From Actinomycetota bacterium (GTDB taxonomy: Bacteria > Actinomycetota > UBA4738), in the NCBI GenBank assembly GCA_040414485.1, contig JBEDUK010000027.1, forward strand, positions 9,208 through 73,207: 64,000 nt of DNA, given 5' to 3'. Positions 3,008 to 7,270 of this stretch are shown here, piece after piece; positions within the stretch are counted from its first letter, which is position 1, and the number at the start of each line of letters is the position of its first letter. Both the position numbers and the translations under genes were made by a program. Under the pieces are notes generated by a model that saw nothing but the letters and a program-made list of their open reading frames with translations, was not told the DNA's origin and searched no databases.

Positions 3008-4018
3008 TCAACGGCTCGAGCGGATCTCCACGTCCAGCGCGGCGTCGGGGTTGCCGGCCATGGCCGCGACCAGCGTGGGAAGCAGGACCGAACCGGGCAC
3101 GCCACCCTTCAGTGCACGGTCGGCCTCGACCACCCGCGCATGGAGCGCCGCAAGCTCATCAGGGCTGAACCGGCCCGCCTGTTCCCGGTAGCGGCGGACC
3201 TGCCAGTCGAATCGAAGCCCGGCCCGTTTCGCCGCTTCGGCCTGCGGCAGGCGTTCGGGGAGCGCCCGCACGCGGATCAGGTCGCGGATCCGGGACGCGA
3301 TGCCGCCGAGGATCACCAGGGCGTCCTCGCGCTCGTCGAGCATTCCGCGCAGCGTGATCAGCGCCTCGCCCAAGCGGCCGGCGAACGCGCGATCGCACAG
3401 GTCCCAGACCCGCTGCTCACCGAGGCCTTCGAACTGGGCCCGCACCTGCGGAGGACCGATCGGCTCGGGCGAGGCGCCGCCTCCGAACGCGGACGCAAGC
3501 TGATCCAGCGCCTGGTCGAGCGTGGCGGGATCCTCCCCGAGGATCGATGTGAGCGCGTTCAGACCTGCCGGGGTCACGCTCAGGTGACGGGCGGTGGCAC
3601 GTTCGGCGAGCCATCGGGCCAGGTCCTGCCGGCGGGGCGGCGCGATCTGCCGCACCGTCCCGCCGCACTCGGTGACCGCCGCGGACCATTTCGGCGGCTT
3701 CCCGGCGCGCGGCATGGCGGTGATGACCAGCGCCGCGTCGGCAGCCGGTGCCGAAAGGTAGGACTGCAGCTCCCGCACGCCGTGATCCGGCAACGCGTGC
3801 GCACCGTGGACGAACAGCGCCCGGCGCTCTCCCCACAGCGAGGGTGTGGACAGGTCGGAGGTCTCCCCGCCGCGCCATTCGGCGCCGTCCACCTCCACCG
3901 CGTGCGCGCCGAAGTCGTCGAGGAACGCCCTCGCGGCGTTTCGGAGCATGAACTCGTCCTCGCCCCAGAACAGCGCGACCGGGACCGCGGGGCCACCGTG
4001 GGAACCCCTGCGCGTCAC
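3008..4018 (-). CDS. holA: DNA polymerase III delta subunit
   Basis: LFWGEDEFML, VWDLCDRAF...A, EADRALKGG. Conserved comEC-holA-rpsT context. GTG 4018 chosen for its GAAGGG RBS; the ORF track starts at 4093. Confidence 0.88.
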   Translation of the reverse strand: MTRRGSHGGPAVPVALFWGEDEFMLRNAARAFLDDFGAHAVEVDGAEWRGGETSDLSTPSLWGERRALFVHGAHALPDHGVRELQSYLSAPAADAALVITAMPRAGKPPKWSAAVTECGGTVRQIAPPRRQDLARWLAERATARHLSVTPAGLNALTSILGEDPATLDQALDQLASAFGGGASPEPIGPPQVRAQFEGLGEQRVWDLCDRAFAGRLGEALITLRGMLDEREDALVILGGIASRIRDLIRVRALPERLPQAEAAKRAGLRFDWQVRRYREQAGRFSPDELAALHARVVEADRALKGGVPGSVLLPTLVAAMAGNPDAALDVEIRSSR

Positions 4019-4055: not shown

Positions 4056-6440
4056 TCAGCCAATGTGGCTCGATCGTATCTCGACCCTCCCACGCTGGAA
4101 GACCACGGTGATGTCCCCGGAGCGGTCGGTGCGGAAGAGCCGCATCCCGTCGCGGGCGAGCAGCGCCAGCACGCCCGGATTCGGGTGCCCGTACCGGTTC
4201 GGCTGGCCGACGCTGACCACGGCGATCCGCGCGTGGACGGCCGCGAAGAACCCGGGAAGGGACGTGGCCCCGCCGTGGTGCGGCACCTTCAGGACGGTCG
4301 CGTGCAGGTACGGCCGCTCGTGGGCGAGGAGATCGTTCTGGTTCTCCTGTTGCGCGTCGCCGGTGAACAGCACGGAGGCGTCGCCCTCGTGCACCAGCAG
4401 CACCAGCGAGTCGTTGTTCGGGTCGGATTCGGTTCCACCCCAGCAGTGTCCCGGCCCAAGCACGTCGACCCGAACGTCGGCCACGCGAAGCTCGGCGCCC
4501 GGCCGCGGATGCCGGAACGGCACGCCGCTCGCCGCGATCGCCCGAAGGAACTCCGCGTAATAGGGCGACGAGCCGTTGCAGCCTGGGTCGATGGCCAGCG
4601 CGACCGGGATGCGGGCGAGCACCACGGGCAGCCCGGCCACGTGATCCGCGTGCTGATGGGTCGCCACCAACAGGTCAAGCCGGTGGACGCCGAGCGCCGC
4701 GAGCTTCGTGGCCACCTGCGACGGATCGGGTCCGCCGTCGATGAGGATCTGCGCGCCGGCCGGCGAGCGGATCAGCGCCGAGTCCCCCTGCCCGACGTCG
4801 AAGAAGGTCACGGTGAGCGTCCCCGGCGCGCCGGCGGCGAACGCGCGTCCCCAGACCAGGACCGGAAGGAGCAACGCGGCGCCCACCACGACGCGCCTGG
4901 ACACGGTTCGGGCCGACGCGAACCACCAGCCCGCAACGCTCACCAGCGCCAGGCCGAGCAGCAGCGGAAGCACCCGGCCGGTGGTCGCGGTGATCGTCGG
5001 CAGCGGCGCCTTCGCCAGGCGGTGCGCCAGACCTTCGAGGTACCCGAGCGGCACCATCGCCAGGCGAGCTACCAGGAATCCTGCGGCGTGCCAGACGAGC
5101 CCGACGGCGGCGGCCAGGAGCCCGAGGAGCATCCCGGGCCCGACGGCCGGGTACGCCAGGACGTTCGCTGCGAGCGTGACCGTCGGCACCCAGCCGAAGT
5201 AATAGAGCAGCAGGGGCGTGACGCCGATCTGCGCCGCAATCGTGGTTCCCGCGGCGAGCGCGATGCCGCGGGGCATGAATCGAAGGCGGTCCGCGATCGG
5301 ATTCGCCATCAACGCCATGCCGGCGGTGGCCGCGACCGACAGTTGGAAGCCGATCGCGTACACGAGGGTCGGGTTGATGGCGAGCAGCGCCAGGACCGCA
5401 CCGCCCATGATGGCACCGACCGATCGCGGACGGCCCAGGAAGATCCCGAGCATGGTCAGCAGCGCCATGGCTGAGGCGCGCAGGACAGACGGTTCCGCGC
5501 GGGTAAGCAGTGCGAAGAAGACCACGCCGCCGACGCCGACGACGAGTCGGGCGCGCCTGCCGGCACCGAGCCAGAGGGCGAACCCGAGGACCGGCGCGAG
5601 GAACATGGCCAGGTTCTCGCCGGAGACGGCCAGCAGGTGCGTGAGACCCGTCGCCTTGAAGTCCTCTTCGACACCGGGGTCGAGCCGCGAGGTGTCGCCC
5701 AGGGTCAAACCCATCATCAGCCCCGCCTCCTTCGGAGGGAACACCCGCTGCAGCGAACCGCGGAACGCTCGACGCACAGCTTCCGCGACGCGAACCACGA
5801 ATCCCGACGGTGGTCCGATGTACCGAAACGTGCTCGCCGACATGGACGCGGCGAATCCCCGGTGCGTGAGGTAGACGCCGAAGTCGCCCTCGGGAAGGCT
5901 GAGCAGGCCTTCCGCGCGGATCCGATCGCCTGCGTGGAGGTGCGGGGGCGGACCCTGACCCTCCATCCAGACGGCGTCATGGACGCGGACTTCGGCGGGC
6001 CAGCCCGAAGTGGACGGCTCGACCCCCGCGACGTCGACGGGAACGGTCCAGCCGAGCGCCCCCGGCGACGGGTCGCCGGCCAGGGATCCGGTGATCTCCA
6101 CGGAACGGCCCGCCAGTCGATGCAGCGGCGATGCGAACAGGTGCACCTCGTGGATCAGGCCGTCGGCGGCGCCGAGGAGCCCGAACCCGACGACCGCCGC
6201 GCCGCCGACGGCGACCCGGCGGGCCAGGGTGGCCGAGCCGCCCCCACGGCTCCGGACTTGGCCGGGCACGGGGCGGACCGGCCGACGGGCGGCGAGCACG
6301 AGCAGCACGAGGCCGCCGGCGCCCAACGCTCCGGCGGCGACCAACGCTCCGGCGGCGACCAGCGACGCCGGCAGCCGTTGCGTGGCGAGGATCCCGACCC
6401 AGAAGCCCGCGGCCACGACCGCCAGGAACCATCCACCCAT
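4056..6440 (-). CDS. comEC: ComEC/Rec2 DNA-uptake channel with metallo-beta-lactamase domain
   Basis: Multiple TM segments, GLTHLLAVSGEN, FDVGQGD, LIDGG, THQHADH (HxHxDH), KVPHHG. Confidence 0.95.
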   Translation of the reverse strand: MGGWFLAVVAAGFWVGILATQRLPASLVAAGALVAAGALGAGGLVLLVLAARRPVRPVPGQVRSRGGGSATLARRVAVGGAAVVGFGLLGAADGLIHEVHLFASPLHRLAGRSVEITGSLAGDPSPGALGWTVPVDVAGVEPSTSGWPAEVRVHDAVWMEGQGPPPHLHAGDRIRAEGLLSLPEGDFGVYLTHRGFAASMSASTFRYIGPPSGFVVRVAEAVRRAFRGSLQRVFPPKEAGLMMGLTLGDTSRLDPGVEEDFKATGLTHLLAVSGENLAMFLAPVLGFALWLGAGRRARLVVGVGGVVFFALLTRAEPSVLRASAMALLTMLGIFLGRPRSVGAIMGGAVLALLAINPTLVYAIGFQLSVAATAGMALMANPIADRLRFMPRGIALAAGTTIAAQIGVTPLLLYYFGWVPTVTLAANVLAYPAVGPGMLLGLLAAAVGLVWHAAGFLVARLAMVPLGYLEGLAHRLAKAPLPTITATTGRVLPLLLGLALVSVAGWWFASARTVSRRVVVGAALLLPVLVWGRAFAAGAPGTLTVTFFDVGQGDSALIRSPAGAQILIDGGPDPSQVATKLAALGVHRLDLLVATHQHADHVAGLPVVLARIPVALAIDPGCNGSSPYYAEFLRAIAASGVPFRHPRPGAELRVADVRVDVLGPGHCWGGTESDPNNDSLVLLVHEGDASVLFTGDAQQENQNDLLAHERPYLHATVLKVPHHGGATSLPGFFAAVHARIAVVSVGQPNRYGHPNPGVLALLARDGMRLFRTDRSGDITVVFQRGRVEIRSSHIG
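6323..6358. repeat. 18-bp perfect tandem duplication inside comEC
   Basis: ccaacgctccggcggcga x2, in frame, in the repetitive LVAAGA-LVAAGA-LGAGG stretch. Confidence 0.85.
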
Positions 6441-6459: not shown

Positions 6460-7116
6460 TCAGACGGTGATGAGCGGTTCCAGGTCCGCCATGTGCGACG
6501 GCCCGATCCCCGGCACGTTGTCGATGTCCTTGACCGACCGGAACGGGCCGTGCTGCTCGCGGTAGGTGATGATCCGTTGGGCCAGCGCCGGTCCGATCCC
6601 TGGAAGCGCGACGAGCTGGTCGAGGGTGGCGGTGTTGATGTTCACCTTCGCGTCGGAGCCGTCGCCGGTCCCTCCTCCGCCGCCGGTGCTGGTCCCGCTC
6701 GTCGAGCCGCCCGCGCCCGCCTTTCCGACGACGATCTGCTCGGCGTCCGACAGCGTGGCCGCCAGGTTCAGACTGGTCAGGTCCGACCCGGGGAGCGCCC
6801 CGCCGGCGCGCTCGATCGCATCGACGACCCGGTCGCCCAGATGGAACGTGTACACACCCGGATGCCGAACCCGGCCGGCGACGTCGACCACGATCTCGGC
6901 AGGGCTCGCGCTGGGCCCCGGCCGCGGACCGGCCGACGCGACACCGCCGGCCCGATGCGACCCGTTCGCGAATTCGTCGACGTGCACCGCCGAGGGAAGC
7001 GACCGGACGTACCAGACGACGGCACCCGCGACGACCAGCGCGCCGATCACCGCCAGCCCGATCTTCTCGCGGCGTTCGAGTCCGGCGATCCGTTCGCGGA
7101 GGCCGCCACTCTCCAC
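6460..7116 (-). CDS. comEA: ComEA DNA-binding protein (SLBB + helix-hairpin-helix)
   Basis: N-terminal TM anchor, VDVAGRVRHPGVY, KVNINTAT, LPGIGPALA and VPGIG HhH motifs. GTG 7116 follows a GAGGGG RBS. Confidence 0.93.
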   Translation of the reverse strand: MESGGLRERIAGLERREKIGLAVIGALVVAGAVVWYVRSLPSAVHVDEFANGSHRAGGVASAGPRPGPSASPAEIVVDVAGRVRHPGVYTFHLGDRVVDAIERAGGALPGSDLTSLNLAATLSDAEQIVVGKAGAGGSTSGTSTGGGGGTGDGSDAKVNINTATLDQLVALPGIGPALAQRIITYREQHGPFRSVKDIDNVPGIGPSHMADLEPLITV

Positions 7117-7248
7117 CGCCGACCCCCTCAACCAACTCGACGCTCCGGCGCCCAATGCGGGCACACATCCGGAGGAGAGAGAGGCGATCAGTTCAGCGCG
7201 TCACACCGCGAAACGAGCCGCACCATGTTCGCGACGCGCGTTCCACTG

Positions 7249-7270
7249 ACGATACCAACGGGCACCGACA
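7249..7270 (-). promoter_or_regulatory. PafBC/RecA-NDp-type promoter upstream of comEA
   Basis: Minus strand reads TGTCGG-tgcccgttgg-TATCGT, an exact match to TGTCGG-N10-TA-N3-T. Confidence 0.6.

Follow-up and report, generated by a model that had tools for sequence, protein, structure and literature searches.

Which signal switches on the DNA-uptake genes comEA and comEC in an uncultured soil actinobacterium? The question arises from a 22-nucleotide block upstream of comEA in the window (the whole stretch of 64,000 nucleotides that was analyzed), which an earlier sequence-only reading had matched to the promoters activated by PafBC in the LexA-independent DNA damage response of mycobacteria, suggesting that the competence machinery and a clamp-loader subunit of DNA polymerase III may be damage-inducible in this lineage. 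Comparative analysis makes the assignment of this block to the PafBC/RecA-NDp promoter class well supported and points to comEA-comEC as a new predicted member of the PafBC regulon, the promoter class itself being already known.

The comEA locus and its promoter motif

The genes of this neighborhood, namely leuS, a VOC/glyoxalase-family gene, comEA, comEC, holA and lepA, all lie on the minus strand. In the direction of transcription the features are:

11047/10333 to 7871, minus strand: leuS
7822 to 7406, minus strand: VOC/glyoxalase-family gene, recognized by domain search, between leuS and comEA
7346 to 7317, minus strand: weak sigma-70-like match, TTGACC-18-CAGAAT
7270 to 7249, minus strand: PafBC-type (RecA-NDp) promoter, assigned from sequence, spacing-specific enrichment and matrix score
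7270 to 7265, minus strand: -26 element TGTCGG of this promoter, extending as TGTCGGTG to 7263
7254 to 7249, minus strand: -10 element TATCGT, separated from the -26 element by a spacer of 10 nt
7243 to 7241, minus strand: predicted transcription start, placed 6-8 nt past the -10 element by promoter geometry
7205 to 7190, minus strand: decayed CRP-type box, TGTGA-CGCGCT-GAACT, with a broken right half-site
7116 to 6460, minus strand: comEA, 218 aa, with a membrane anchor, an SLBB domain and a helix-hairpin-helix DNA-binding domain (HHH_3, 1.6e-21)
6440 to 4056, minus strand: comEC/rec2, 794 aa (Competence, 2.1e-51; Lactamase_B), beginning 19 nt past comEA
4093 to 3008, minus strand: holA, DNA polymerase III delta (TIGR01128, 149.7 bits against a cut-off of 80)
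2572 to 755, minus strand: lepA

The identities of the two uptake genes are supported by family-specific models, with comEA scoring 64.7 bits against TIGR00426 (cut-off 53.1) and comEC 197.1 bits against TIGR00361 (cut-off 190.05). The most likely start of comEA is the GTG at 7116, which has a GAGGGGG ribosome-binding site ahead of it and agrees with the starts of the orthologues. If holA begins at 4093 it overlaps the end of comEC, and an alternative start at 4018 would leave a gap of 37 nt; no terminator-like sites above chance were found between comEA, comEC and holA, and the arrangement suggests that holA is probably co-transcribed with comEA-comEC. Among the comEA loci examined, the VOC/glyoxalase-family gene stands between leuS and comEA only in this genome, and in most relatives (families f1-f7) the end of leuS directly adjoins the comEA promoter region. 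The motif under study sits between the VOC/glyoxalase-family gene and comEA.

On the minus strand, positions 7270-7249 read TGTCGG TGCCCGTTGG TATCGT, which bears out the TGTCGG-N10-TATCGT block originally noticed, with 132 nt separating the end of its -10 element from the comEA start. The block fits the ChIP-seq consensus of PafBC, tGTCgg(N10)tA(N3)T, exactly, including the invariant GTC triplet (PMC8635444), and also matches the longer RecA-NDp form TGTCGGTG-N8-TAnnnT, with TATCGT as the -10. Seventeen nucleotides upstream of the -10 stands GCTCCA, a hexamer that shares only 2 of 6 positions with TTGACA, so that there is no -35 element; a sigma-70 scan of the comEA upstream region found no promoter that uses the TATCGT -10, and a search for an SOS box between 7100 and 7420 found none. 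No paralogous copy of the promoter block was detected in the genome, nor any similarity between it and the comEA loci of relatives. Shuffling of the window yields 0.14 expected matches to TGTCGG-N10-TANNNT against the one observed, in agreement with the prior rough estimate of about 0.15. The window count by itself proves little; the genome-wide case is strong.

The weak sigma-70-like match upstream of the PafBC-type promoter is a possible constitutive rival to it. This match agrees with its consensus at 9 of 12 positions (1 found versus 0.2 expected in the region), and its -10, CAGAAT, does not begin with the T of the actinobacterial TANNNT. Either this site at 7346-7317 or read-through from leuS and the VOC/glyoxalase-family gene could supply basal expression of comEA.

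The PafBC regulator and its predicted regulon in this genome

The sequence-only reading had called for PafBC-like WYL regulators, and these are encoded on contig C16 as two adjacent WYL-domain genes, pafB and pafC, in the canonical gene order dop-pup-prcB-prcA...pafA-pafB-pafC-(small ORF)-tatA-tatC-helY. The best match of PafB among solved structures is M. smegmatis PafB in the RNA polymerase-PafBC complex (7p5x chain AY), which it covers end-to-end with an E-value of 2.2e-36. In M. smegmatis PafB the residues R46 and R50 read the GTC triplet of the motif (PMC8635444). The recognition helix, RMFERDK, is identical in the two proteins, and both GTC-reading arginines are thus retained. NCBIfam offered no model naming the two WYL genes.

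A scan of the complete 3.58 Mb genome recovered 22 matches to TGTCRG-N10-TANNNT, as against 1, 3, 1 and 0 matches for the same hexamers at spacings of 7, 9, 11 and 13, and 3 for the reversed pattern. Seventeen of the 22 strict matches are followed within 200 nt by the start of a same-strand gene, in a genome that is only 9.5% intergenic. The genes concerned include recA, lhr, recN, dinB, rmuC, dnaX, comFC, comM (followed by dprA) and those for a PD-(D/E)XK nuclease and an ssb-like protein, and a relaxed form of the motif, allowing any base around GTC, adds uvrA, uvrB, two uvrD-like helicases, polA, ligA, recF and lexA. Hence the enrichment at repair genes that the PafBC assignment would lead one to expect is strong, covering recA, uvrA/B, the uvrD-like genes, lhr, recN, dinB, polA, ligA, recF and lexA. 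In this genome the regulon members mostly have no leader or next to none, their start codons following the -10 at a distance of 4-11 nt. Across the clade the motif is commoner than its reversed control in 41 of the 41 genomes sampled.

For a quantitative comparison we used a 32-column matrix whose 52 training sites stand before lhr and comM in relatives only. The comEA site scores 16.1 bits, ranking 31st among about 7.2 million positions in the genome and falling among sites of rmuC (16.8), polA (15.9), dinB (15.7), lexA (15.0) and uvrA (13.7); it is below both the median (23.5 bits) and the lower quartile (20.4 bits) of the training sites, and is the third-weakest of the PafBC-type comEA sites. 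The 31 matches of at least 16 bits are distributed very unevenly, with 7 in the coding 90% of the genome and 24 in the non-coding 10%, a split from which about one chance match would be expected in all intergenic DNA.

Many actinobacterial SigA promoters function with a TANNNT -10 element alone. It is accordingly conceivable that TATCGT is a real, PafBC-independent promoter driving constitutive transcription, to which TGTCGG at -26 is coincidental; the hexamer does fit the general actinobacterial -10 consensus (PMC8635444), and the link of PafBC to the site is predicted only. We regard this as unlikely, although it fares best among the alternatives, given that TGTCGG (and TGTCGGTG) would occur by chance at the right distance from a given -10 in less than 1 in 1000 cases, that the spacing controls confine the hexamer pair essentially to N10, and that the same architecture precedes the canonical repair genes of this genome.

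The reading that we prefer, in which the site acts through PafBC, gains from the other genes for DNA uptake and processing. In relatives with enough upstream sequence, comFC has a PafBC-type leaderless promoter in 28 of 28 cases, and comM, which overlaps dprA, has a PafBC-type promoter in 27 of 30, proportions that may be set beside the 27 of 29 genomes for lhr, our yardstick gene. In the present genome the corresponding motif matches are:

C9:39562-39583, plus strand: comFC promoter
C50:3712-3733, minus strand: comM-dprA promoter

Based on these frequencies comFC and comM-dprA seem to belong to the core of the damage regulon throughout the class. Together with the site before comEA-comEC, they place all recognizable uptake and processing genes of this genome behind PafBC-type promoters. 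Here and at loci L152-L216 of relatives, the comFC and comM-dprA motifs were observed 6-10 nt ahead of a leaderless start codon.

Several further observations emerged from the genome-wide scan. A strict motif lies 37 nt upstream of dnaX (C62:5070-5091, minus strand), and dnaN and dnaB have relaxed matches (C61:53863 and C74:25225), raising the possibility that replisome genes other than holA may belong to the PafBC regulon. In the uvrA promoter (C114:8822-8851) the PafBC -26 element TGTCAC shares bases with a perfect CRP-like palindrome, TGTGAGCCTTGTCACA; the right half of this palindrome is at the same time the GTC element, and its distance suits the geometry of PafBC rather than that of a class II CRP site. 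In the relatives G027, G028, G031, G034 and G037 many motif matches share a longer, near-identical 5' part, TGTCAGACCC(C/T)..., unlike the TGTCGGTG type, and these may represent a promoter sub-class or a repeated or mobile element carrying a promoter.

Promoter turnover before comEA across the class

All 120 genomes sampled from the class of the window fall in one order, which indicates that the class is a single-order, wholly uncultured group of Actinomycetota. Its genomes are mostly 2-4 Mb in size (range about 1.3-4.7 Mb), and the public records matched by the comEA search derive from soil, groundwater and similar environmental metagenomes. Orthologues of comEA were recovered in 38 of 41 relatives, and most of these present a different promoter architecture: a palindrome NGTGA-N6-[TG]CAC (typically TGTGAC....TCACT) followed at exactly 21 nt by a TAGCGT-like TANNNT, the gap being 22 nt in a single locus. 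The palindrome is centered at -41.5, the position of a class II activator, overlapping the -35 position. Such a CRP-type box precedes comEA in about 40 of 53 loci and, in a further set taken from families f5 and f7, in 12 of 13; the block was seen at loci L004-L032, L064-L070, L071-L101 and L224-L236. Its presence in most genomes of the class predicts control of the DNA-uptake genes by a protein of the cAMP-receptor type. In the genome of the window 4-5 proteins belong to the Crp/Fnr family (five HTH_Crp_2 matches above cut-off), and GTGA-N6-TCAC occurs 92 times, versus 21-31 times at other spacings.

The window itself preserves a relic of this architecture, about 45 nt closer to comEA than the PafBC-type promoter. 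Not only is the right half-site of the relic box broken, but the position 21 nt past it has ATGTGT where relatives have TAGCGT, leaving no -10. By these marks the ancestral CRP-type promoter is probably dead in the window, and as a result the PafBC-type promoter is the only good promoter adjoining comEA.

The distribution of PafBC-type promoters before comEA in the families of the class is as follows:

f1: 1 of 20, in this genome alone
f2: 0 of 3, CRP-type
f3: 0 of 2, CRP-type
f4: 1 of 1, 24.1 bits
f5: 0 of 15, with 14 CRP-type and one with neither motif
f6: 2 of 2, 23.4 and 23.9 bits
f7: 0 of 4, CRP-type
f8: 9 of 9, spanning 7 genera, 13.3-24.4 bits

To these may be added L095, a MAG of unassigned family, with a PafBC-type site of 18.3 bits before comEA, and the MAG L085, in which a CRP box and a PafBC-type match of 14.9 bits occur together. 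None of the remaining comEA loci in the 53-locus set reaches 10 bits, and the opposite strand, used as a control, was positive in 1 of 53. PafBC-type comEA promoters occur mostly where the CRP box is missing, and their conservation throughout f8 speaks for a functional role of PafBC-type control at comEA in the class. In these other cases between 9 and about 90 nt separate the promoter from the start codon. Around 20 comEA loci of other Actinomycetota, including Gaiellaceae, Jatrophihabitans, Pseudonocardiaceae, Nocardioidaceae, Micromonosporaceae and Microbacteriaceae, showed neither motif upstream, a weak negative in that their start codons were extrapolated. One f5 genome (G095:C2:1433479-1434117) has a comEA homologue with 2-3 in-frame TGA codons and shifted pieces, which is probably a pseudogene.

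Closer to the window, conservation of the motif before comEA fails: it is absent from the genome of the same genus (best score -2.5 bits) and from all 19 of the other f1 members examined, which instead have the CRP-type box or a weakened form of it. The initial suggestion of damage control "in this lineage" was consequently too broad, and the absence of the site from the genus mate and the 19 other f1 genomes points to a gain at the species level. On this phylogenetic pattern the PafBC-type promoter of the window is an independent and recent gain of that species.

Sequence of this region was found in soil DNA runs only, and variant strains could be drawn from soil metagenome contigs of two other studies, X8 and X11. 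The X11 contig aligns over 155 nt with 6 differences and has both hexamers intact, its changes falling at 7255 (in the spacer), 7247, 7275, 7228 and 7192 (in the right half of the old CRP box); this otherwise near-identical strain diverges completely upstream of 7313, which places the edge of a recombination or insertion event about 43 nt ahead of the -26 element. X8 retains the -10, with listed changes at 7255 and 7259 in the spacer, and its -26 element is too near the contig end for changes there to be listed. These variants fit a picture in which the hexamers are under selection and the relic drifts, and by themselves are not significant, as an absence of changes across the 12 hexamer positions is expected about 60% of the time at this level of divergence.

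A recent gain invites the question of whether the 22-mer simply drifted up in a remodelled intergenic region, with the operon being read through from leuS and the VOC/glyoxalase-family gene or transcribed from some other start. The site is indeed unique to this species within its family, its score is moderate, its long leader is atypical of the regulon and 13 of 100 shuffles of the window contain at least one such match. Against this, 24 intergenic matches of such quality are observed genome-wide where about one is expected, and the site is correctly oriented before an operon that lost its ancestral promoter. Three other families share this promoter type at comEA, the present genome also has it at comFC and comM-dprA, and X11, the variant in which the whole motif is readable, keeps both hexamers. 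We therefore judge a chance match to be improbable, marginally more so than the constitutive promoter considered above.

A predicted damage-inducible uptake operon and its known counterparts

Taking these observations together, we propose that the site is likely to be a functional PafBC-dependent promoter for comEA-comEC, and probably for holA as well. By analogy with the mycobacterial system, DNA damage would give rise to single-stranded DNA, which would bind the WYL domains of a PafB-PafC heterodimer; the helix-turn-helix of PafB would then read the GTC of the -26 element (7270-7265), with PafC holding region 4 of sigma-A, so that the housekeeping RNA polymerase could start at a promoter with a good -10 (TATCGT) and no -35. 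Transcription would begin near 7242 and reach comEA after a leader of about 126 nt. Both PafBC binding at 7270-7249 and this start are inferred from motif and geometry, and damage induction of comEA-comEC, and still more that of holA, is likewise predicted. In this species the PafBC-type promoter would replace the CRP-type class II promoter of nearly all relatives, and with the class-wide promoters of comFC and comM-dprA the whole uptake and processing set would here be switched on by DNA damage. That DNA uptake is damage-inducible is hence a reasonable expectation with a good likelihood of being correct.

A feature that sits uneasily with this proposal is the leader of about 126 nt (counted from the predicted start near 7242), since most regulon members are leaderless or nearly so. 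A small leaderless ORF directly behind the promoter was considered as a candidate and rejected, its GTG at 7246 being too near the -10 and the predicted transcription start having no start codon. It is also very improbable that the PafBC-type promoter serves something other than comEA, such as a short non-coding RNA or a leader transcript that stops ahead of 7116: the distance of 132 nt from the -10 to the start codon and the relic of another promoter inside the leader would allow for one, but the leader showed no terminator-like site, matched no family in an Rfam scan and folds in no unusual way (z = 0.12), there is no start codon at the predicted transcription start, and the range of 9 to about 90 nt between the other PafBC-type comEA promoters of the class and their start codons implies that leaders of varying length are tolerated.

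Returning to PafBC control of comEA, a more general hypothesis is that the genes for DNA uptake and processing form a module of the PafBC regulon in this class, with comEA-comEC(-holA) having switched between CRP-type and PafBC-type promoters at least twice, once in the species of the window and once or more in f4, f6 and f8. We put this forward tentatively, at slightly below even confidence. If it holds, DNA import would be part of the damage response, supplying repair templates or nucleotides, and competence genes in Actinomycetota would gain from the elements described here their first defined transcriptional inputs, along with a clean natural example of one operon rewired from a nutritional to a genotoxic signal. 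Co-transcription of holA, together with the motif at dnaX, would mean that clamp-loader subunits may be damage-inducible too. Testable promoter elements of both types, PafBC and CRP, are now given for comEA-comEC, comFC and comM-dprA. They would carry the PafBC/RecA-NDp regulon, so far studied chiefly in mycobacteria, into a deep uncultured lineage and add genes for DNA uptake to it, and they suggest that a single operon has changed during evolution between two promoter types, each dependent on an activator.

The closest known counterpart is the mycobacterial PafBC system. Mycobacterial RecA-NDp/PafBC-dependent promoters, including recA P1, are reportedly the subject of Gamulin 2004 and Mueller 2018. 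For mycobacteria, earlier work has established the promoter class, its regulator, the "sigma adaptation" mechanism and ssDNA as the signal (PMC8635444, PMC11804915, PMC6789036); RecA-NDp reportedly reaches other Actinobacteria (PMC8223512), and a search for the motif in Streptomyces venezuelae was negative (PMC9380542). The system described here shares with the mycobacterial one the tGTCgg-N10-tAnnnT architecture with no -35, the location of pafB and pafC beside pafA and the Pup-proteasome genes, the identical PafB helix RMFERDK and a regulon centered on recA, uvrABD, lhr, recN and dinB. It differs in that its host belongs to an uncultured, single-order class of soil Actinomycetota and is known here from sequence alone, and in that comEA-comEC-holA is no reported member of the mycobacterial regulon in the accessible texts, the site being a recent species-level gain. 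Our literature search, in whose scope the primary M. smegmatis regulon tables did not fall, found no text tying PafBC/RecA-NDp to comEA, comEC, comFC, comM or dprA and nothing relevant on Rv2897c and DNA damage; for Rv2413c-2415c, a study of mitomycin C in M. tuberculosis had only an uninformative proteomics row.

Induction of competence by DNA damage occurs in Streptococcus pneumoniae, Legionella pneumophila and Helicobacter pylori, through competence-specific regulators. The present case resembles these in its logic, by which genotoxic stress would prompt the cell to express its DNA-uptake machinery, and is unlike them in that a WYL-domain sensor of ssDNA is proposed to act directly at the comEA promoter. 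Among Actinomycetota, in which the regulation of comEA/EC has been described as poorly understood (PMC12849477), the only transformation model is Micrococcus luteus, whose comEA/comEC genes are induced by stress and nutrient limitation, with amino-acid limitation and (p)ppGpp as inputs and no transcription factor or promoter element defined (PMC6667448, PMC12849477). The operon under study is the same late-competence operon within the same phylum. In Haemophilus influenzae and Vibrio cholerae, competence genes are under CRP control (CRP-S/Sxy-TfoX; PMC8467076), to which the TGTGA-N6-TCAC box at -41.5 before comEA in the relatives offers a parallel; unlike in those species, no Sxy/TfoX partner is known here, and the box of the window itself is decayed and probably non-functional. 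The two predicted inputs in this class, one of the cAMP-receptor type and one of the DNA-damage type, would thus mirror the two kinds of competence signal found in other phyla.
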